Assembly: GCA_046483495.1 (NCBI GenBank)
Contig: JAWODC010000012.1
Location: 1 to 40,325 of the forward strand
DNA length: 40,325 nucleotides
Direction: 5' to 3'
Source of the DNA: Desulfobacterales bacterium
Lineage (GTDB): Bacteria > Desulfobacterota > Desulfobacteria > Desulfobacterales > UBA5616
Shown: one piece after another, positions 6,095 to 35,308 of the stretch
Numbering within the stretch: position 1 is the stretch's first letter
How the letters are laid out: every line of letters begins with the position of its first letter
Program-made: the position numbers and the translations under genes
The notes under the pieces: model-generated
What the model saw: the letters and a program-made list of their open reading frames with translations, nothing else
What the model was told of the DNA's origin: nothing
Database searches by the model: none

Positions 6095-6427
6095 TTAAAA
6101 AACGAGCGGTGCATATCCCTGTTTGAGAAGATCCGAAATGACGGGGCCGACGTACTTCACGTTCATTCCGATCGCTCTGAGCTGATCCGAATTGCCGTCG
6201 CGGTCCGACAGAAACCGGCAAAACATCGGCTTTTCACTTTCGGCGATTTCCAAGGCCGCTTTTTTGACCTGTTCATTGTCGATAACAAGATTTTGAGCAG
6301 GCCCGAAGAAAATGACCTTGACATCTTCCAGCCAGCCGAATCGTATGGCGTTCTGCGCATACATCAAGCCGGTCAGCGCTTTTTCCGTTTCTCCTGTTGA
6401 AATGATAACCACCGCTTTGTCGCTCAT
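6095..6427 (-). CDS. DsrE-family protein
   Basis: 110 aa; KALTGLMYAQNA...VKVIFFGP...C...YVGPVISDLLKQGY pattern typical of DsrE-like proteins. Confidence 0.75.
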   Translation of the reverse strand: MSDKAVVIISTGETEKALTGLMYAQNAIRFGWLEDVKVIFFGPAQNLVIDNEQVKKAALEIAESEKPMFCRFLSDRDGNSDQLRAIGMNVKYVGPVISDLLKQGYAPLVF

Positions 6428-6767: not shown

Positions 6768-8327
6768 TCACGAAACGCTGTACTGTTCCACCAATTTTTT
6801 TCGCTGCAGTTTGCCGATGGCCGTCCTCGGGAGTTCATCTTTAAAAACCACTTTCCGGGGACACTTGAATGAAGCCAGCTTGTCGCGGGTAAAATCGATA
6901 ATTTCCTCTTCCGTTGCCGACTCCCCCTCTTTCAATACGATGACGGCATAGGGCTGCTGGCCCCACTCCTCGTCGGGAACGCCGATAACGGCCACTTCGG
7001 CGATCTTTGGATGGGTGATCAAGGCTTCCTCGACTTCCTTCGGGGAAATATTTTCACCCCCCCGTATGATGACATCGTCGGCCCTGCCGGTCCGGTAAAT
7101 ATATCCCTCTTCGTCCATCCAGCCCTGGTCCGAGGTCTTGAGCCAACCGTCCCTGGTAAACGCAACTTTTGTTTTTGCTTCATCTTTCCAGTATCCACGC
7201 ATTACCCGGGGACCCCTGGCTACGATTTCACCGATTTGATGGGGCGCCAAAGGATTGTCATCAGGATCGACGATTTGTATTTCAACGTCCGGCAACGGTT
7301 TGCCGATCGAAGTGGCAAGCCGCCTGAGCTTTTTTTCCTTTTCTTCTTCCGTTCCGTCGATTTGATGGTCCTCCGGCCCGAGCATCGTAATCGTGGAGCC
7401 GGTTTCCGTCTGCCCGAAGGCATTGATGAAACTCACACCGGGCATCATTTCAATAGCTTTCTTGATGACGGGAAACGGCATCGCCGCCGCACCGTATGTG
7501 ATCACTTCAAGACTGGAAAGGTCGTACTTGTCGAAATTTTCATGATCGATGACCTGCTTGAGCATGGTTGGAACCAGCATTGCCCGGTTGGCCTTTTCTT
7601 CTTCGACGAGCTGGAGCCATTTTTCAACCTCGAACTGGCGCATCAGCACCAGCGTCCGGCCGCCGTAAACACCGGCAAGCATCCCCTGGACGCCTGCGAC
7701 GTGGTACAAGGGAACGGTAAGAATGTTTTTTTCTTCGGTTTCGGGGTCGGCCGGACTGACATTTTCCAGGATATAGGAGCCGAAGCTTTCATGCGTCAGG
7801 GGCACCGCCTTTGGACGACCCGTCGTGCCGGAGGTGAACATGAGAATCGTAACATCCTCGTCTTCGACTTCGGAAAAATATTCATCCTCGAATTCGGCAT
7901 CCACGAGGTCCTCATAGAACAGCATGTTTTCAAAAGGTGTATCGATGGAGATGCACTTTTCCAGCAACGGAAGGCTGGGAATCATTTCTTTCGCCGATTC
8001 CAGGTACCGTTCACCAACCAGCAGGTACCTGGCTTCAGATGCCGTCAGCATATACTCCAATTCGTCTTTTTTCGCCCGAAAATTCAGGGGAACGAAAATG
8101 GCGCCGGTCTTTGCAGCTGCAAAATATGATTCAATGTATTGCGGACAATTGACACTCAAGATCCCGACTCGGTCGCCTTTTTCAATCCCCATTTCGGCCA
8201 GTTTGAAGGCCAGACTGTTTATGCGGGCCCCTGCCTCCATGTAGGTGGTTCGGGTGCCCTCGAACACCATAAAATCCCGATCAGGGCAAATAGCAGCCGC
8301 TACTGAAAAAAAATCCGTCGTGTTCAT
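6768..8327 (-). CDS. Acyl-CoA synthetase / AMP-binding ligase
   Basis: FTSGTTGRPKAV, FGQTET, GEIVARGP, GRADDVIIRGGENISP, LPRTAIGKL. Confidence 0.95.
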   Translation of the reverse strand: MNTTDFFSVAAAICPDRDFMVFEGTRTTYMEAGARINSLAFKLAEMGIEKGDRVGILSVNCPQYIESYFAAAKTGAIFVPLNFRAKKDELEYMLTASEARYLLVGERYLESAKEMIPSLPLLEKCISIDTPFENMLFYEDLVDAEFEDEYFSEVEDEDVTILMFTSGTTGRPKAVPLTHESFGSYILENVSPADPETEEKNILTVPLYHVAGVQGMLAGVYGGRTLVLMRQFEVEKWLQLVEEEKANRAMLVPTMLKQVIDHENFDKYDLSSLEVITYGAAAMPFPVIKKAIEMMPGVSFINAFGQTETGSTITMLGPEDHQIDGTEEEKEKKLRRLATSIGKPLPDVEIQIVDPDDNPLAPHQIGEIVARGPRVMRGYWKDEAKTKVAFTRDGWLKTSDQGWMDEEGYIYRTGRADDVIIRGGENISPKEVEEALITHPKIAEVAVIGVPDEEWGQQPYAVIVLKEGESATEEEIIDFTRDKLASFKCPRKVVFKDELPRTAIGKLQRKKLVEQYSVS

Positions 8328-8382: not shown

Positions 8383-9120
8383 TTAAAAACAGGCCTGAGT
8401 ACCTTTCATGATCCTGCCGGCGATTCTGTCTTCAAGATCCAACCCCTCTGAAAGCGGCAGGTCCATTCCCCGGTTTATCGCCTCCTTGACCGCCTTGACC
8501 GTTGTATAATGGTGCAGCGAAATGCCATCGGCAAGCTTATCGACCGTCGTATAGAGCATATTTTCGGGAACGACACGGTTTACCAGGGAGGCCTTGAGGG
8601 CGGCCTTTGCATCGATCCACCGGTTGGTCAGAGTCATTTCCATGGCCTTGGCAGTCCCCACCGCCCGCGGAATCGTCTGCGTGCCGCCGGCAGCGGGAAT
8701 CATCCCCAGATCCATTTCGGGAAGTCCGAACCGGGCGTTTTCAGAGGCGATACAGATATCGCAGCAGAGCGCGATTTCGATTCCCGATCCCAGTACATAA
8801 CCGTGAACCGCAGCAATCAAGATCTGGGGCATGCGCAGAAAAAGCCCCCAGAGATCACCGTCAAACCGAATTTCCCTGGCTGCTGTCGGCGAAGGCGCCG
8901 TCAAAAACTCGCTGATATCGGCACCCGCGCAAAAAGCCTTTTCACCGGCGCCTTTGAACACCACGACCCGCACTTCATCATCATCCCGAATGGCGCCGAG
9001 CACCTCGATCATGTCATCCCGCATCTGAACGTTATGGGCGTTCAATGCGCGGGGCCGATTAAGCGTTACGGTGGCGACATGGTCCACCTTTTCAAAAATC
9101 AGTGTTTCGAATGCACTCAT
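8383..9120 (-). CDS. Enoyl-CoA hydratase/isomerase family
   Basis: LNRPRALNA, AFCAGADI, GSGIE and GLPE (both catalytic Glu), GGTQ. Confidence 0.93.
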   Translation of the reverse strand: MSAFETLIFEKVDHVATVTLNRPRALNAHNVQMRDDMIEVLGAIRDDDEVRVVVFKGAGEKAFCAGADISEFLTAPSPTAAREIRFDGDLWGLFLRMPQILIAAVHGYVLGSGIEIALCCDICIASENARFGLPEMDLGMIPAAGGTQTIPRAVGTAKAMEMTLTNRWIDAKAALKASLVNRVVPENMLYTTVDKLADGISLHHYTTVKAVKEAINRGMDLPLSEGLDLEDRIAGRIMKGTQACF

Positions 9121-9869
9121 TTACCCTCGAATTTCGGACGCCTCTTTTCCTGAAAAGCACGGATGCCTTCGGTGCGGTCATGGGTGGTATGAAGCAGAAA
9201 ATAAAGATCCGCCTCCATCCTCAATCCCTGCTCCAATGTCATATCCATGCCTTTGAGAATGGCCTCCTTGGCGTAGCGGAGGGCAATGGCGCCCTTTTGG
9301 GCTATCTGATCCGCGGTTTCCATGGCCGACGCCAATACGGCATCCGTTGCAACCAACCGGCTTACCAGCCCGACGTCCAGGGCTTGCGCTGCATTGACGA
9401 TTTCGCCGGTTAAAATCATTTCCATTGCTCTGCACCGGCCGATCAGTCGTGACAAACGCTGTGTGCCGCCGTCCCACGGGATTTCGCCCTTTAAAATATG
9501 GGGCATACCAAAACATGCGGCATCTGCGGCAACTCGAATATCACAGGCTAAGGCGATTTCCAGCCCCTGCCCCAGGGCATCACCGTTCAAGGCCGCAATC
9601 ACCGGACGGTCGAAAGAGCCGATAACGGCCGCGGCCCGCAAATCGGCCAAACATTCTTCCCCTTTTTTGTCGGTGCCGGTGCAGAATGCCTTATGACCCG
9701 CTCCGGTAATCACGATGACATGGATATCACTTCCATAGCCGATCTCACGGCGGATTTGGGCGAGTTCCACCGTCATCTCCCGGGTCACCGCATTGCCGAA
9801 GTCCGGCCGGTTTAAACGGATAATGCCGACCCTTCCTTGTTTCGAGAATTTTACAAGCGATTCCGTCAT
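9117..9869 (-). CDS. Enoyl-CoA hydratase/isomerase family
   Basis: LNRPDFGNA, AFCTGTD, GQGLE, GGTQRL, AFQEKRRPKF; 4-nt ATGA overlap with the downstream gene. Confidence 0.92.
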   Translation of the reverse strand: MTESLVKFSKQGRVGIIRLNRPDFGNAVTREMTVELAQIRREIGYGSDIHVIVITGAGHKAFCTGTDKKGEECLADLRAAAVIGSFDRPVIAALNGDALGQGLEIALACDIRVAADAACFGMPHILKGEIPWDGGTQRLSRLIGRCRAMEMILTGEIVNAAQALDVGLVSRLVATDAVLASAMETADQIAQKGAIALRYAKEAILKGMDMTLEQGLRMEADLYFLLHTTHDRTEGIRAFQEKRRPKFEGK

Positions 9870-11205: not shown

Positions 11206-12675
11206 TTAAGCGTTGTCGACGACCGGCGTCGCCTTCCAGAAGTAATTCTTGAATTTCAACTGATCGTCATCCGTTTTGATTCGAAAGACCATTTCCATGG
11301 GAACCCCCACCTCAACTTCTTCAGGCTTGCAGCCGGTGAACTGCATCATGAACTTGGCCCCCTCTTCGAACTCGATCATTCCGAACAGGAGCGGCGGATT
11401 GGGTGTGTAGGCCAGCCAGTCAACGGTGTAGGACGCGATTTTGCTCTTGCTTTCCGCCAGTGAGTAATCGTCCATGCTGTCCACGGCCCGGCATTCGGGG
11501 TTTACGCAGATATGGGCTTTGGGGAACTGAATGGTGCCGCATTCGCTGCACTTTCCGCCGTAAAGTGAATTGAGCATCTTCCGGTTCCTGTACAGGGTCG
11601 TCATACGCGTCTTCCGGGCGCCGGCTTCGGCCCGCATGCCCCATTCAATGGGCACCAGATTCCGGAAGGACAGGAATTTCTGGTAATTATCTTCAACGAT
11701 ACCGTTTTTCATACCTCCCTTGATCCCCTTTGCCCGGGTTTGTTTGGAAACGGCCTCCGTTGTTTCGAACAGCAGGGCATCCGCTCCCTGGCCAAAACCG
11801 ACCACCAGAATTTTTTCGCCGGGTTTGGCATCCTGGAGCGCATCCACGAGCATCACCACGGCATGGGCGCTTCCGGTTTCGCCGCAGCCATTCATGAGAT
11901 TATCCCTGATCGCTTCCGCCGGCATTCCCATTTTCTTGGCGATCGTCTCGCGTACCCGCTTTATGACACAGGGCAGAACAAAATGATCGATTTCCCCCGG
12001 GGCCACACCGGTTTTTTCCAAAAGGCCTTTGATTGCCGACGGCACGATTTTAAAATATCCTTCTTCCCTGATCCAACGCTCCTCCCATTCGTAATCGAAC
12101 CGTTCGCCCTTTGAACGGAAGTGGTCCACCATATCCCTGCTGACGGAATAGGCCCCCAGATATCGTGCAATCAGGCCGTCACCCTTGCCCAGGGTAACGG
12201 CGGCGGCTCCGTCGCCGTACAACAGTTCCTTTGGGGTCCCGCATTTCGTTTCCCGCTGCTCGGAGGCAACAAACAGAGAAGCTTTACCCTCTCCGCCGGC
12301 AAGTGCTTTCATGGCGGTGATCATCCCTGAGGTCGCCGCCCGCTGAGAGTGCGATACATCGAGGGTCTCGATATTTTCTTTAATGCCGAGCGCTTCGGCG
12401 ACAACCGTAGAATTCTGACGATCATCGAACGGCATCGTGGTCGAGGCGAAGAAAACGGCATCGATGTCCTGCCGGTCAGCTTCTTTCAAGCAGTCCCGTC
12501 CCGCTTCAACCGCCATAGTAATGGTGTCTTCGTCATAATCGCACATAGACCGCTCCGATTTGGCATGGGCCATCAGGCTCGGATCCACCCAAATGTTCGC
12601 CTGAACAATGCTTTTCCGGCTCATCCGCAACCGCGGAATATACCCGCCGTAAGCGGTGATTCCAACTTCGTTCAT
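11206..12675 (-). CDS. HMG-CoA-synthase/KAS III-like domain fused to DUF35 (Zn ribbon + OB fold)
   Basis: GITAYGGYIPRLR, DEDTITMAVEA, GDGAAA, GETGSAH, GFGQGADA; C-terminal CSECG..FP...CVNPEC followed by OB-fold VGVPMEMVFR. Confidence 0.9.
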   Translation of the reverse strand: MNEVGITAYGGYIPRLRMSRKSIVQANIWVDPSLMAHAKSERSMCDYDEDTITMAVEAGRDCLKEADRQDIDAVFFASTTMPFDDRQNSTVVAEALGIKENIETLDVSHSQRAATSGMITAMKALAGGEGKASLFVASEQRETKCGTPKELLYGDGAAAVTLGKGDGLIARYLGAYSVSRDMVDHFRSKGERFDYEWEERWIREEGYFKIVPSAIKGLLEKTGVAPGEIDHFVLPCVIKRVRETIAKKMGMPAEAIRDNLMNGCGETGSAHAVVMLVDALQDAKPGEKILVVGFGQGADALLFETTEAVSKQTRAKGIKGGMKNGIVEDNYQKFLSFRNLVPIEWGMRAEAGARKTRMTTLYRNRKMLNSLYGGKCSECGTIQFPKAHICVNPECRAVDSMDDYSLAESKSKIASYTVDWLAYTPNPPLLFGMIEFEEGAKFMMQFTGCKPEEVEVGVPMEMVFRIKTDDDQLKFKNYFWKATPVVDNA

Positions 12676-13160
12676 AAACTTCTCCTTTCTTGTACCGATT
12701 CGCCTTTTTTAGTGTGGTTTAACCGACCTATAATATTAAAACGCAAATTCCAACTCGTGCAGGGCGGTTTCGGTTCGTTGGAGAATGGTCCAAACCGCCT
12801 TGCCATGAACCCCTTTCCATGAACTTAAGAAAGTTGAATTATAAATTTAAATATTTATGCTATCCGCTCAAAAATTTCAAGCCTTAATTGCAATTCAATG
12901 ATCGGGTATCGAAGGTAGGCAAACGCTTGTTTTTGAAATTGACATCGATCCCTTAAAGTGATAAGAACTGAAAAAAATGTAATAACTTGCAAGGCTTATG
13001 ATGAGGAGGAATTCATAAAATGGCGAATCAAACAGGCAAAAGGTACGTGTGTGAAAAATGTGGGGCGACTTACTTGGTGACAAAAGGCGGTGATGGAGAG
13101 CTTAAATGCTGTAGTCAGCCTATGGTGATAAAAAAATAATTTTATATACAAGGAGGGATC

Positions 13161-13301
13161 ATGAGCCAGTTGGGAAAACGCTACATCTGCGAAACCTGCG
13201 GAACGCAAATTCTGTGCACCAAAGCTGCGGAATCGAATCCTGAATGCTGCGGCCAGGAAATGCCGGTTCAACAGCCGAAGAAGACGCCTTCCTCGGACTA
13301 A
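13161..13301 (+). CDS. 46-aa desulforedoxin-like metal-binding protein (absent from ORF track)
   Basis: RBS AAGGAGG before ATG; MSQLGKRYICETCGTQILCTKAAESNPECCGQEMPVQQPKKTPSSD; CxxC-x15-CC motif; stop 6 nt before the next gene. Confidence 0.88.
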   Translation: MSQLGKRYICETCGTQILCTKAAESNPECCGQEMPVQQPKKTPSSD

Positions 13302-13307
13302 AAAAGC

Positions 13308-14267
13308 ATGAAAAAAACCGCCGTATGTGATCTCCTTTCAATCACATACCCAGTCCTGCAAGGCGGGATGCTTTGGCTTGCCGACGCCGGACTTGCTGCA
13401 GCAGTGTCCAATGCGGGAGGCCTGGGAGTGATCAGCCCGCTTGCCGGCGCTTCGCCTTCCGCCGATGCCGTCGCACATTTGTCGGGGCAGATACAGCAGG
13501 TGCGGACATTAACGGCAAAACCGCTCGGCATCAACCTTCCGCTGGACCTCAGAGATGTCGGGCTCTTGATAAATGCGGCTCTTGAACAAGGCGTCGATGC
13601 GGTAATTACGGCGGCCGGTGATCCGGCCGTCTATACCGGTTTATTGAAAAGCGGCGGCATCACCGTGCTCCACGTGGTGAGCACCGTAAAACATGCCAAA
13701 AAGGCCGAAGAAGCCGGAGCAGATGCGGTTATCGCAGAAGGTGTCGAGGCGGCGGCCAGGAACGGTTTCGATGAATCGCCGCTTTTCTCACTTCTGCCCC
13801 AGGTGGTTGACGCCGTCGATATTCCGGTCATCGCAGCCGGCGGCATTGCGGACGCACGAGGTATGGCCGCGGCGTTCGCTCTCGGCGCCCAGGGCATTCA
13901 AATGGGAACCCGATTTTTAATGACTCGGGAGTGCATCGCGAACGCCGATTACAAGAAGGCGATTCTCGCGGCGGGCGACACGGACACCATTATCACCCTT
14001 CGAAAACTGATTCCGAGCAGGAGCCTGAAAAACACCGGATTTACACACGGTCTTCTGGCCCTGGAACAAGAGGGCGCTTCCAGTGAGGAATTGAAGCAGT
14101 TTCTCGGTCATGCCGCCTCACGCACCGCGGGAATCGAGGGGGATCTGGAAAACGGTGAAGCATATTGCGGCGCCTCCGCCGGGTTGATAAACGATATACC
14201 GCCGGTAAAAAGCGTGATCGATAGGATGGTTGCGGACTGGGATTCGGTCGTCCAAAAACTTCTCTGA
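13308..14267 (+). CDS. FabK/nitronate monooxygenase-family FMN enzyme
   Basis: YPVLQGGM, AAAVSNAGGLG, PVIAAGGIAD, LGAQGIQMGTRF. Confidence 0.9.
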   Translation: MKKTAVCDLLSITYPVLQGGMLWLADAGLAAAVSNAGGLGVISPLAGASPSADAVAHLSGQIQQVRTLTAKPLGINLPLDLRDVGLLINAALEQGVDAVITAAGDPAVYTGLLKSGGITVLHVVSTVKHAKKAEEAGADAVIAEGVEAAARNGFDESPLFSLLPQVVDAVDIPVIAAGGIADARGMAAAFALGAQGIQMGTRFLMTRECIANADYKKAILAAGDTDTIITLRKLIPSRSLKNTGFTHGLLALEQEGASSEELKQFLGHAASRTAGIEGDLENGEAYCGASAGLINDIPPVKSVIDRMVADWDSVVQKLL

Positions 14268-30589: not shown

Positions 30590-31540
30590 ATGAAGAAAAT
30601 AAAAATCGGATCACGCAAGAGCAGACTGGCGCTTTGGCAGTCTGAAAGCGTGGCACATATGATGAATCGCCGGGGAATCGAAACCGAGATCATCACCATG
30701 GATACCATCGGAGACAAAAAACTCGACACGCCGATTGCCGAAATCGGCGGCAAAGGCGTTTTTACCGAAGAAATAGAGGCCGCCCTTAAGCACGGAGACC
30801 TTGACATGGCGGTTCACAGCGCCAAGGACATGCCGTCCCGATTGCCTGAAGGATTTTTCCTGATCGCCTTTACAGAACGGGAAAGAGCCAATGATGTACT
30901 GGTGAGTTCCGCCGATGGTCCATCCCTGGAAGATACAGCCGACCCTCTTCGGATCGGAACCTCTTCGGTCCGGCGAACGGCTTTGCTCAAGCACTTCTAC
31001 CCGCATGTAAAAACGGTAAATATCAGAGGCAACCTTCAAACCCGTATTCATAAGATGGAAACCGGCGAGTGTGATGCCCTCCTGCTGGCTTATGCCGGCG
31101 TCAAGCGGATGCAATACGACCACATGATCGTCCGGCATATGCCTGTAACGCAATTCGTACCGCCCGTCGGACAGGGAAGCATGGCTGTCGAGGTTTACGA
31201 TTCCATCGATGCGAACCTGAAAGCCGCGATTCGTAATTGCGTCAATCATGCACCGACGGAAGTGGTGATAACGGCGGAACGGGCTTACCTGAAAACACTT
31301 CAGGGCGGGTGCAGCATTCCGGCATTTGCCTATGCCCGGTATGTCGGCGAAGCGATCCGATTGATCGCCGGACTTGTCAGTCCCGACGGCCGCATTCTTT
31401 TGAAAGAAGAACTGACGGGGAGGACGGAGGAGGCGGCCGAATTGGGAGAAATCGCCGGTTTACGGATCCTTCAAACCGGCGGAAAAGAAATATTGGATGA
31501 ATTACATGGGTTTACAAAAAACGAAGGAGGAACATGTTAA
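30590..31540 (+). CDS. hemC: Hydroxymethylbilane synthase (porphobilinogen deaminase)
   Basis: GSRKSRLALWQ, GGKGVFT, AVHSAKDMP, GTSSVRR, RGNLQTR, GGCSIP (cofactor Cys). Confidence 0.96.
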   Translation: MKKIKIGSRKSRLALWQSESVAHMMNRRGIETEIITMDTIGDKKLDTPIAEIGGKGVFTEEIEAALKHGDLDMAVHSAKDMPSRLPEGFFLIAFTERERANDVLVSSADGPSLEDTADPLRIGTSSVRRTALLKHFYPHVKTVNIRGNLQTRIHKMETGECDALLLAYAGVKRMQYDHMIVRHMPVTQFVPPVGQGSMAVEVYDSIDANLKAAIRNCVNHAPTEVVITAERAYLKTLQGGCSIPAFAYARYVGEAIRLIAGLVSPDGRILLKEELTGRTEEAAELGEIAGLRILQTGGKEILDELHGFTKNEGGTC

Positions 31541-32061
31541 GTGCAGAACAACACAGCCCCAAAACCGGCATTGTGTTTCGGAATCCAACAACCGACGACG
31601 GAAAGCATTTTTGGGAAATTGCAAAGGCATCCAAGACACTGGACGTAAATTCCATGTATCATTATCTGATCCTGTGCCGCCATTTTGGACGAACGTCCAT
31701 TGCCGCCGAGAAGGACGGTCGGATTGTCGGATTTGTCACCGCTTATATTCCGCCGGAAAATCCGAACACGGTGTTTGTCTGGCAGGTTGCGGTTGATGAG
31801 GCGGAGCGCGGACAGGCAATCGGCGTCAACATGCTGGTAAATGTGTGCAGAAACGCGAAAGCCTATGCCGTCGATCATCTCGAGGCCACCGTAACCCCAT
31901 CCAATGAACCAAGCAAAAGGCTTTTTGCTGCTGCGGCCCGGCGGTTAAATGCGCCGTTTGAATTTGAAAAGGAAATTTTTTCAGCAGCGGATTTCGGACC
32001 AGCCGTCCATGAACCCGAACTGCTGTTCCGCATCGGTCCATTTGACGACCACATACGATAA
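31534..32061 (+). CDS. ectA: Diaminobutyrate acetyltransferase
   Basis: LDVNSMYHYL, FVWQVAV, LEATVTPSNEPS, HEPELLFRIGP; first of ectABC. Confidence 0.95.
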   Translation: MLSAEQHSPKTGIVFRNPTTDDGKHFWEIAKASKTLDVNSMYHYLILCRHFGRTSIAAEKDGRIVGFVTAYIPPENPNTVFVWQVAVDEAERGQAIGVNMLVNVCRNAKAYAVDHLEATVTPSNEPSKRLFAAAARRLNAPFEFEKEIFSAADFGPAVHEPELLFRIGPFDDHIR

Positions 32062-32073
32062 AGGGAGAAAAAT

Positions 32074-33348
32074 ATGAGAATTTTTGAACAGATCGAATCA
32101 CGTGTCAGAGGATATGTCAGGTCTTTTCCTGTTATTTTCGAATCATCCGAAGGAGCGGTAATGACGGATGAATCCGGCAAGAACTACATTGATTTTTTCG
32201 CGGGCGCCGGTGCCCTGAATTACGGCCACAATAATGAACGCATCAACGCGGCATTGATCGATTACATCCAGAACAAAGGGCCGCATCACACACTGGATAT
32301 GGCCACCTCGGCGAAGAAGCGGTTTCTGACCAAATTCTATGATACCATTCTGCAGCCCCGGAATTTGGAATACAAAGTGCAGTTCACCGGCCCTACCGGC
32401 ACGAATTCCGTGGAAACAGCCATTAAGCTGGCACGGATGATAAAAGGACGCTCGAATATCGTTGCATTTACCAATGGTTTTCACGGATTGACCATGGGCT
32501 CTCTGTCCATTACCGGAAACAATTTTTACCGGGATGAAGCCCATATCAGCAGATGCAATGTCAGTTTCATGCCCTATGACTGCTACCTGGGTCCGGATGT
32601 GAGAACGATGGATTATTTCCGCAAGCTTTTAAGCGACAACAGCAGCGGACTCGACCTCCCGGCCGCCGTAATCGTCGAGACCATTCAGGCGGAAGGGGGC
32701 GTCAATGTCGCCAGTCCCGAATGGCTGCGCGAATTGGCCTTGGTATGCTACGAATTCGACATCTTGCTCATCGTCGATGACATCCAGGTGGGCAACGGCC
32801 GTACCGGCGAATTCTTCAGTTTCGAAGAATCCGGCATAAAGCCGGACATGGTGACGCTGTCAAAGGCCATCGGCGGCGGCCTGCCGTTGGCGCTGCTGCT
32901 TCTCCGGCAGGACCTCGATCAATGGAAGCCGGGAGAGCATACCGGCACGTTCAGGGGAAACAATCTGGCGTTTGTCGCATCTTATGAAACCCTTCACTAT
33001 TGGGACAACATGGATCTGAGCAATGCCGTTCAATACAAATCCGAAATCATGAAAAAAGAGATCCAGGCGATCGCCGATCGGTTTCCGGAGCTCAACGCCA
33101 AGGTCCGCGGACGGGGTATGATCTACGGGCTTGAAATTCCTGAACGGGGCTTCTGTTCCGAACTGTCGGAAAAATGTTTTGACAACGGGCTCATTATCGA
33201 ATTGGCCGGCGCTGACGACCAGGTGCTCAAATTCCTGCCGCCGCTGGTTATCGATGAAGAAACCCTGTTGAAGGGCATCGCCGTCATCGAACAGTCCATT
33301 GCCGAACTTCTCGAAGAAAAAAAGGAAAAACTTACAGGAGAATTTTAA
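32074..33348 (+). CDS. ectB: Diaminobutyrate--2-oxoglutarate transaminase
   Basis: ESRVRGYVRSFP, DFFAGAGALNYGHN, DDIQVGNGRTG, LSKAIGG, WKPGEHTGTFRGNN. Confidence 0.97.
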   Translation: MRIFEQIESRVRGYVRSFPVIFESSEGAVMTDESGKNYIDFFAGAGALNYGHNNERINAALIDYIQNKGPHHTLDMATSAKKRFLTKFYDTILQPRNLEYKVQFTGPTGTNSVETAIKLARMIKGRSNIVAFTNGFHGLTMGSLSITGNNFYRDEAHISRCNVSFMPYDCYLGPDVRTMDYFRKLLSDNSSGLDLPAAVIVETIQAEGGVNVASPEWLRELALVCYEFDILLIVDDIQVGNGRTGEFFSFEESGIKPDMVTLSKAIGGGLPLALLLLRQDLDQWKPGEHTGTFRGNNLAFVASYETLHYWDNMDLSNAVQYKSEIMKKEIQAIADRFPELNAKVRGRGMIYGLEIPERGFCSELSEKCFDNGLIIELAGADDQVLKFLPPLVIDEETLLKGIAVIEQSIAELLEEKKEKLTGEF

Positions 33349-33740
33349 TGATAGTGAGAAGATTGGAAGACATCATCGGATCTGAAAATGATGTACAAAG
33401 CGAAACCGGAACATGGGTAAGCCGTCGCATGCTCCTTAAAAAGGACGGCATGGGTTTTTCCTTCCATGATACGACCATATTTGCCGGGACCACAACCCTG
33501 ATATGGTACAAAAACCATTTAGAAGCCGTATATTGCGTGGCCGGCGAAGGCGAATTGGAAGTGATTGAAACGGGGGAGGTGTACAAGATCGAGGACGGTA
33601 CCATGTATGCCTTAAACGGTCATGAACGGCATTACCTGCGGGCATTCTCGGAATTGCGGCTGATCTGTGTATTCAATCCGCCGCTGACCGGAAGGGAAGT
33701 TCATGATGAAGACGGCTCCTATCCCCTTGTCGAAGACTGA
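33348..33740 (+). CDS. ectC: Ectoine synthase
   Basis: MIVRRL, GMGFSFH, WYKNHLEAVYC, CVFNPPLTGREVHDEDGSY. Confidence 0.97.
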   Translation: MIVRRLEDIIGSENDVQSETGTWVSRRMLLKKDGMGFSFHDTTIFAGTTTLIWYKNHLEAVYCVAGEGELEVIETGEVYKIEDGTMYALNGHERHYLRAFSELRLICVFNPPLTGREVHDEDGSYPLVED

Positions 33741-33792
33741 CCCCGGTGTCCCGATAGCACCCACAGAAATCAGGTTTTACTGCAAAGGACAT

Positions 33793-33837
33793 GAAGATCA
33801 CGAAACGGTCAAGAATGAGAACGGTTTCGTGATCTTC
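33793..33837. repeat. Perfect 14-bp inverted repeat between ectC and ask
   Basis: gaagatcacgaaac-N17-gtttcgtgatcttc; right arm followed by a tandem copy of tcgtgatct. Confidence 0.7.
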
Positions 33838-33886
33838 GTGATCTTAGCGATCAACCAGAGACGATAAAATTGAAACAGGAGGACAA

Positions 33887-35308
33887 ATGGGAAACCATAC
33901 AGTCGAAAAAATCGGCGGCACATCCATGTCTCAATTTTCAGATGTACTGGACAATATACTCATCGGAAACAGAAAAGAAGAAGAACTGTACAACCGCATT
34001 ATCGTGGTGTCCGCTTATGGAGGACTCACGGATATGCTGCTGGAGCATAAAAGATCTCAAAAACCAGGCGTTTATGCCCTTTTTTCAGACAGCGACGCAT
34101 CCTGGACATGGGGAGACGCCGTTACCGAGGTCGGAAATCGGATGTGCCAGGTCAATGCGGAACTCGAACCCCTGGGGCTCGACTGTTCGATCGCGGATCG
34201 TTTCGTTAAAGAGCGGATCGAAGGTGTGCGGTCCTGTCTGCTGGACCTGACCCGCCTTTGTTCATACGGCCATTTTCAGCTCGATGAGCACTTGATGACG
34301 GTTCGGGAAATGCTCAGTGCCGTGGGGGAAGCGCACAGCGCCCACAACACTTCCCAGATCCTGACGTCACTCGGGGTAAACGCACGGTTCGTGGATTTGA
34401 GCGGATGGATGGAGACGGAACATTTCACACTCGACGATAAGATCCTGCATCACTTCAAGGACCTGGACCTCACATCGGAATTGCCGGTCGTCACGGGATA
34501 CACCTATTGCAAAGAAGGGATCATGCACACCTTCGACAGGGGATACAGCGAAATCACCTTCAGCAAGGTCGCAGTGCTCACCGAGGCGAAAGAAGGCATC
34601 ATCCACAAGGAATTTCATCTCAGCAGCGGTGACCCGAAACTGATCGGGGAGGATAAAGTACAAACCATCGGAAATACCAACTATGATGTTGCGGATCAAC
34701 TCTCCGATTTGGGTATGGAGGCGATACACCCTGCGGCCGCCAAGGGAATGCGGAAGAGCGGCATTCCCCTTCGCATTAAAAACACCTTCGAACCCGAACA
34801 TCCGGGCACCGTCATTCAGACCGATTATAAAAACGAATATCCCAAAGTCGAAATTATCGCCGGCAGAAAAAAGGTTACCGCCATCGAATGCTGGGACCAG
34901 GATATGGTCGGGCGTTGGAACCACGACCTGGAAATGCTGAAGCATTTCTCAAATTTAAAAATCCGGTATCTTGCAAAGGATACGAATGCAAATACCCTGA
35001 CCCATTACGTGGACGAACCGCTGTCCACCATCCAGAAACTTGCCGATGTTATCCAGGAGTCTTTTCCGACAGCCGATATTATGATAAAGCGGGTGTCTTT
35101 AGTGTCGGCAATCGGCAGCAACATGGGGGATTCCGGGGTCTTTCCCAGGGCCGTTTCCGCCCTGAACTCGGCCGGCATCCCGATCCTGGCGGTCCATAAA
35201 TGCATGCGGGATATTGACATTCAGTTCGTAATCGAAGAAGATGATTTTGAAAATGGCGTACGCGTTCTGCACAAAATCCTGGTTGAAGAAAACGGCGACT
35301 GCAGCTGA
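33887..35308 (+). CDS. ask: Ectoine-associated aspartate kinase (Ask_Ect type)
   Basis: HTVEKIGGTSMS, FDRGYSEITFS, IIHKEFHLSS.DP, GMEAIHP, C-terminal ACT-like region; follows ectC. Confidence 0.93.
   Translation: MGNHTVEKIGGTSMSQFSDVLDNILIGNRKEEELYNRIIVVSAYGGLTDMLLEHKRSQKPGVYALFSDSDASWTWGDAVTEVGNRMCQVNAELEPLGLDCSIADRFVKERIEGVRSCLLDLTRLCSYGHFQLDEHLMTVREMLSAVGEAHSAHNTSQILTSLGVNARFVDLSGWMETEHFTLDDKILHHFKDLDLTSELPVVTGYTYCKEGIMHTFDRGYSEITFSKVAVLTEAKEGIIHKEFHLSSGDPKLIGEDKVQTIGNTNYDVADQLSDLGMEAIHPAAAKGMRKSGIPLRIKNTFEPEHPGTVIQTDYKNEYPKVEIIAGRKKVTAIECWDQDMVGRWNHDLEMLKHFSNLKIRYLAKDTNANTLTHYVDEPLSTIQKLADVIQESFPTADIMIKRVSLVSAIGSNMGDSGVFPRAVSALNSAGIPILAVHKCMRDIDIQFVIEEDDFENGVRVLHKILVEENGDCS

Follow-up and report, generated by a model that had tools for sequence, protein, structure and literature searches.

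Desulforedoxin (PDB 1dxg/1cfw; PF06397) is a homodimer of tail-less 36-aa chains, and it has its fold in common with the N-terminal domain of desulfoferrodoxin and with two small proteins, here called DxA and DxB, that are encoded in the 40,325-nucleotide stretch of Desulfobacterales DNA analysed in this study (the window, meaning that whole stretch). The motif CxxC-x15-CC is common to both window proteins, each of which has all four metal ligands. In contrast to desulforedoxin, DxA and DxB are two different halves, split or fused, with a 10-residue tail ending in Asp; the four ligands are not conserved across the DxB family, and the linked genes encode acyl-CoA enzymes rather than superoxide reductase. 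MbtH-like proteins are small partners encoded beside an adenylating enzyme; their fold is unrelated, DxB gave no match to the MbtH models of Pfam or NCBIfam, and it is kept in 13 genomes in which only a CoA-transferase was found. The acyl carrier systems of malonate decarboxylase and citrate lyase combine a small protein, a ligase or CoA-transferase-like enzyme and a crotonase-fold pair, whereas DxB lacks an internal Ser motif and its recurrent neighbours include no CitG/CitX-type genes.

Amino-group carriers are loaded by the ATP-grasp enzyme LysX and released by the M20 hydrolase LysK; at the DxB loci the recurrent partner belongs either to the ANL ligases or to the class I CoA-transferases, and an Amidohydro_3 clade co-occurs. 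The amino-group carrier proteins are globular carriers whose acidic C-terminal residue is activated and whose product a hydrolase releases, and LysW and Vzb22 likewise have a small globular domain, an acidic-ended tail and an accompanying ligase and hydrolase (PMC9303977). They end in Glu, whereas the tailed family has the desulforedoxin fold, is associated with CoA chemistry and ends mostly in Asp (114 of 150 listed representatives, with 8 in Glu). The pearlin carrier peptides (TglA, TmoA) undergo chemistry at the C-terminal residue and then hydrolytic release (PMC9303977); they differ in that no PEARL is among the annotated recurrent neighbours of DxB, which is folded and has a genetically encoded terminal residue. 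The PtmA3/PtmU4 thioacid cassette comprises an ANL ligase, a two-domain class III CoA-transferase and a small carrier with a functional C-terminus (PMC6006322), and DxB loci, similarly, often have a CaiB pair or its two-domain form. However, that carrier ends in Gly-Gly and has another fold, and no CaiB pair stands by the amidohydrolase in 11 of 12 regions. With its S[SA]D end and a model that matches desulforedoxin, DxB also departs from the Gly-Gly end and beta-grasp fold of the ubiquitin-like sulfur carriers (ThiS/MoaD/PtmS2). By their defining features, DxB falls outside the desulforedoxin family, the amino-group carriers, the MbtH-like proteins and the Gly-Gly sulfur carriers, with a layout resembling those of the amino-group carriers and PtmA3/PtmU4.

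A previous sequence-only reading of the window had described DxB as an unannotated open reading frame with a strong ribosome-binding site, a CxxC-x15-CC motif, an additional Cys19, a PSSD end and a 6-nt gap to the ATG of an NMO/FabK-like gene, all of which was confirmed (Table 1). Its cysteines lie at residues 10, 13, 19, 29 and 30, its C-terminus reads QQPKKTPSSD, and it has no Pfam or NCBIfam match at E ≤ 0.01. DxA, which lies 21 nt upstream with its own ribosome-binding site, matches PF06397 at 33.5 bits (cut-off 23) and accompanies DxB in 74 of 80 loci. There is, as had been stated, no superoxide reductase domain near DxB, and the true desulfoferrodoxin of the same genome is on a separate contig (C94). 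Judged by sequence comparison, DxB is a genuine coding gene under purifying selection: against eight homologous genes the changes are mostly at third positions (21 of 27 in the comparison with L046), those in the PSSD codons are silent, and the stop codon switches type while always following directly after Asp. The DxA-DxB pair is covered by RNA-library contigs from two studies, a coverage that may or may not reflect transcription, and a scan of promoters and terminators gave counts not above those of shuffled sequence.

Table 1 Features of the DxA-DxB locus, in window coordinates.
Feature	Position	Strand	Description
DxB	13161..13301	+	46-aa desulforedoxin-fold half with C-terminal tail
DxA	13020..13139	+	39-aa tail-less desulforedoxin-like half
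Shine-Dalgarno AGGAGG of DxB	13151..13156	+	4 nt ahead of ATG
Pro-Ser-Ser-Asp tail codons of DxB	13287..13298	+	Asp46 is the best-conserved feature
AMP-forming (ANL) ligase	6768..8327	-	Core partner; clade travelling with the tailed protein
ech2 crotonase	8383..9120	-	Core partner; both catalytic glutamates, clade-specific arginines
ech1 degenerate crotonase	9117..9869	-	Second Glu lost and oxyanion motif scrambled clade-wide
Thiolase PRK06157	9990..11192	-	Accessory, local insertion
HMG-CoA-synthase-like/DUF35 fusion	11206..12675	-	Accessory, local insertion
NMO/FabK-like flavoenzyme	13308..14267	+	Accessory, although present in 17 of 80 loci

Searching 1.84 billion representatives gave 232 matches at E ≤ 0.001, of which 150 were listed. 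Apart from the Asp and Glu endings counted above, a few of these 150 end in other residues, and 111 end in small-small-Asp; the expectation that homologues would have a conserved acidic C-terminus, and a conserved gene linkage, was borne out by the homologue and neighbourhood searches. Since the tail itself contributes to the search score, genomes were also chosen by the ligase alone (at least 45% identity, in a 400-genome phylum sample), and 16 of the 18 genomes picked in this way carry an S[SA]D-ending gene; in one of the other two the contig ends after DxA, and the second (G377) has no Dx gene. Among 137 tails selected for their Asp ending, position −2 is Ser in 106, Ala in 27 and Gly in 4, and position −3 is Ser in 123, Ala in 6, Gly in 4 and Thr in 4. 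This tolerance fits a thin handle rather than an attachment site at Ser, and it lends no support to a special role for a particular serine of PSSD. Likewise, among 129 tailed domains, also selected for the Asp ending, Cys19 occurs in only 72, which does not support a special role for it, and the CxxC and CC motifs occur together in 77.

Many homologues are DxA-DxB fusions that match no named family in Pfam or NCBIfam. These fused forms, found in Actinomycetota, Sphingomonadales and others, are often free of cysteine, and a large cysteine-free set keeps K-P-L-P-S-S-D with an invariant terminal Asp. The predicted structure of DxB (pLDDT 89.7) has desulforedoxin as its best match (TM 0.90 by target, rmsd 0.9 Å, E 0.02), a profile comparison gives the same relationship (E 2e-6), and a cysteine-free fused member is predicted to consist of two desulforedoxin-like units (pLDDT 90.7). 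A wide fold search with the fused model returned desulforedoxin (1cfw) as the best match at Z 3.5 and nothing at Z ≥ 5. DxA and DxB are two halves of one small desulforedoxin-fold protein, and the split halves presumably pair as the fused ones do. Since the metal ligands are dispensable and the Asp terminus is kept, the fold serves as a scaffold, and it is the free Asp terminus that selection preserves.

Several members at the edges of the family were noted. Divergent fused proteins (P0012, P0014, P0022, P0023, P0030, P0052, P0035, P0040) end in Glu (A[IVLM]SE-like) or in AAF. Two 41%-GC metagenome contigs (L285:4957-5280, L290:5989-6138) carry a tailed DxB with neither DxA nor acyl-CoA enzymes nearby, one of them with a 60-aa N-terminal extension, and a related protein (P0177) is labelled Ca. 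Microgenomates; these stand-alone forms are a possible decoy or separate use. Weak matches of 41-44 aa (L234, L238, L239) proved to be tail-less, ordinary desulforedoxin-like genes and were left out of the counts. No tailed domain fused to an enzyme was present among 26 matches of 110-193 aa, which is weak evidence, and the tailed protein had no match in 50,697 phage records.

The gene order that recurs in the best 80 of 469 GTDB loci is ech1-ech2-ligase-DxA-DxB, with a ligase of one clade in 25 loci, the NMO gene in 17 and close thiolase orthologues in 2. In a genome of the same genus as the window no thiolase lies between DxA and ech1, which identifies the window's thiolase and HMG-CoA-synthase-like/DUF35 genes as an insertion. 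The proposed linkage to an acyl-CoA cluster held for the ligase and the crotonases; the thiolase and the FabK-like gene were not supported as core partners and are accessory. The pair of inserted genes, whose layout we take to be PhlABC-like, occurs in only some members of the DxA-DxB family, and its synthase-like protein seemingly lacks the synthase catalytic Cys. The fused forms adjoin a ligase in all 6 of the plasmid loci inspected (from 19 records) and in 14 of 18 actinobacterial loci, and none of these 24 loci has the NMO gene; the earlier statement that P(S/A)SD-ending proteins occur beside ligases in other bacteria was supported. In a tree of 131 ANL enzymes (FastTree), a single clade of 63 members (support 0.999) contains every one of the 40 adjacent ligases, and the remaining 68 enzymes include none of them. 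Despite about 35% identity this clade has Y185, Y208, R224, W237, Y278, N302, A303 and R336 invariant and keeps S311 and T312 at 94-97%; several of these residues presumably map to acyl-pocket positions of the adenylation-domain pocket code, which implies one conserved ligand. Ligases at 40-43% identity were considered as a sister system and rejected, with no Dx-like gene beside any of 10. Second copies arranged DxA-DxB-ligase occur in three loci (L104, L111, L141). The operon of G377 (90% complete) is otherwise intact, and unrelated non-coding sequence fills its DxA-DxB slot (L220:5772-6151).

The ligase is not the only activating enzyme in this position. The sequence-only reading had overlooked DxA, the amidohydrolase described below and a CoA-transferase that takes the place of the ligase: a pair of class I CoA-transferase genes, with the catalytic Glu present, stands between ech2 and DxA in seven loci. 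In L145 it sits in the ligase's exact slot, the ech1-ech2-sirtuin operon being identical in all other respects. It immediately precedes DxA-DxB in L147 and L027, in the former as a second copy ordered ctfA-ctfB-DxA-DxB. Among 48 genomes without a ligase at the locus, 23 have the ligase elsewhere, 13 have the transferase clade (assigned at ≥65% identity), none has both and 12 have neither, many of the last being fragmented (Fisher p 3e-5 for the exclusion, overstated by kinship). By their record titles, the 13 transferase genomes include Acidobacteriota, Burkholderiaceae, Leptospirales, Desulfomonilaceae, Syntrophorhabdus and Dehalococcoidia. Of 59 tail-negative genomes none was found to carry the transferase clade; 21 additional tail-positive genomes yielded a single case, which is without the ligase. 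In one genome (G109) the operon contains, besides the ligase, a sister CoA-transferase inserted between two DxA copies. At L219:1-5431 the order is ligase-DxA, an inverted ctfB-ctfA and DxA-DxB-NMO, with the CoA-transferase pair inserted between the two copies of DxA, an arrangement that might represent a replacement still under way. A sirtuin deacylase lies inside the operon of Dehalococcoidales (L133, L140, L142-L145, L150) and is retained at L145 although the ligase has been replaced there; L057 and L069 contain an HDAC domain deacylase.

Both crotonases also belong to clades of their own. The ech2 clade (support 0.999) takes in crotonases of Actinomycetota and Sphingomonas that are roughly 340 aa long and degenerate in their N-terminal part, and it has R34 and R85 invariant and R82 near-invariant. 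The changes to ech1 (Table 1) extend to the absence of the second Glu throughout its clade, and ech1 is likely a partner subunit of ech2. The long ech2 is found in exactly the same 14 of 300 actinobacterial genomes as the fused tailed gene, often far off on the chromosome, and in a second set it is present in 33 of 40 positive genomes vs 5 of 40 negative ones. The one strong match among the negatives is cut off by a contig end; in G004, which had looked crotonase-positive and tail-negative, the contig stops 401 nt upstream of ech1. An Amidohydro_3 clade adjoins these genes in both groups of loci and at E ≤ 1e-120 was found in 73 of 80 positive vs 3 of 80 negative genomes, with a profile built from 20 linked sequences, some of them out of positive-set genomes, and with G039 and G462 being one genome. 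In the window genome the amidohydrolase is on another contig (C56:87232-88875), adjoining a CaiB pair. CaiB, as a pair or in two-domain form, is often found nearby, the pairs having only one catalytic Asp; it is not established as a universal core part, with low tree support and a position beside the amidohydrolase in 1 of 12 regions. In L259, L260 and L263-L267 the long ech2 directly follows FadD4, and the amidohydrolase, a collapsed two-domain CaiB and an acyl-CoA dehydrogenase are close by; such loci are a lead to the small molecules of the pathway. Kinship among the genomes means that the co-occurrence counts overstate significance.

Taken together, the comparisons reveal a real, widespread multi-gene system around an Asp-tailed mini-protein, which was undescribed in the open-licence literature searched. 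On comparative evidence of this kind, the mini-protein likely has a carrier or substrate role. Two unrelated acyl-CoA-making folds exchange while the mini-protein stays adjacent with its tail intact, which suggests, as the simplest single explanation, that its terminal Asp is the acid that both activate; a shared substrate fits its retention after the swap, whereas an activator specific to the ligase would be useless there. We consider it an evenly balanced proposition that the tail Asp is this shared substrate and is turned into a CoA thioester. In the scheme that would follow, the ligase, or in other genomes the class I CoA-transferase, would convert a carboxylate of the terminal Asp to a CoA thioester, the ech1/ech2 crotonase would act upon this thioester while it is bound to the protein, and release of the product would fall to the co-occurring amidohydrolase. 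Such a scheme would follow the logic of the amino-group and pearlin carriers (PMC9303977) by means of CoA chemistry. This complete sequence, with a protein-CoA thioester formed on an encoded Asp by either activator, a dedicated crotonase and amidohydrolase, and a protein that either is a carrier used repeatedly or supplies an Asp-derived metabolite, is put forward tentatively and somewhat short of an even chance. We infer the pairing of DxA with DxB, the binding, the formation of the thioester, the choice of carboxylate and the order of steps. Counting against it are G377 with its intact operon and no Dx gene, G109 with both activators, the 12 of 48 genomes with neither, the stand-alone forms of L285 and L290 and the representatives ending in Glu or, in a few cases, other residues; nor was there a recognisable enzyme for joining an amine cargo to the thioester.

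Of the other explanations, the one that survives best is that DxA-DxB acts as a non-covalent, obligatory subunit or scaffold whose Asp tail enters a partner enzyme (the arginine-rich ech2, the activating enzyme or the amidohydrolase being the most plausible) so as to complete an active site or couple enzymes, the real substrate being a free small acid. This is possible though on balance unlikely. It fits the co-occurrence equally well, and interchange of a ligase and a CoA-transferase is ordinary for small acids; if the partner were ech2 or the amidohydrolase, retention after the swap would be explained too, and the conserved arginines of ech2 and the mycobacteria-type loci, in which the crotonase is paired with a different ligase, FadD4, and an acyl-CoA dehydrogenase, are in its favour. 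It accounts less well than activation of the Asp for the adjacency to the activator, since in split clusters the gene stays by that enzyme and not by the crotonase (the 14 actinobacterial and 6 plasmid loci above), and since second copies join DxA-DxB to a ligase or to ctfA-ctfB; moreover, ech2 already has both catalytic glutamates.

An improbable alternative makes the tail a pseudo-substrate plug, inhibiting or regulating the activating enzyme and perhaps gated in anaerobes by metal or redox state. A thin carboxylate-ended tail does mimic an acyl chain, and the stand-alone tailed forms, G377 without the gene and the protein deacylases of some operons could be read in this way; its almost invariable presence alongside the pathway in two phyla, and with either of two unrelated enzyme folds, speaks against it, as do the many members that have lost their metal ligands. 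The sequence-only reading had offered electron transfer as one option, and it is very improbable that DxB is an electron carrier of the desulforedoxin type serving the neighbouring flavoenzyme. All four ligands in both window proteins, the fold match and the NMO gene 6 nt downstream favour this role; against it, the ligands can be lost, cysteine-free forms keeping both fold and tail and just 77 of 129 tailed domains having both motifs, the NMO gene is absent from most loci, and electron transfer needs no tail. Attachment of an acyl group to Cys19 or to one of the tail serines is equally remote, since, common as Ser is at both positions and although small C-terminal motifs bear esters in other systems, either Ser can be Ala or Gly (a few members being without both), Cys19 is often missing, and no phosphopantetheinyl- or CitG/CitX-type transferase is among the annotated recurrent neighbour families.

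The proposed activation of the terminal Asp would have consequences well beyond the window. Desulfobacterota, Dehalococcoidia, Acidobacteriota, Binatota, Actinomycetota and Sphingomonadales all retain the module, mostly in single copy, and assemblies of only 1 Mb can have it too. The small gene has either no name or the wrong label desulfoferrodoxin, and the enzymes bear generic names. Co-occurrence now yields a defined four-part parts list. If the thioester model is true, this would be a new carrier chemistry, whole clades of ligases, CoA-transferases, crotonases and amidohydrolases would have to be reassigned, and enzymes annotated as catabolic for small acids would actually work on a protein terminus.

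Elsewhere in the window, a 110-aa open reading frame following the ligase (6095-6427) has no Pfam or NCBIfam match and by eye appears, we presume, DsrE-like. Two long open reading frames at about 500-940 resemble spurious frames across a tRNA cluster, and positions 30590-35308 hold hemC and then an ectoine cluster (acetyltransferase, aminotransferase, ectoine synthase and aspartate kinase).
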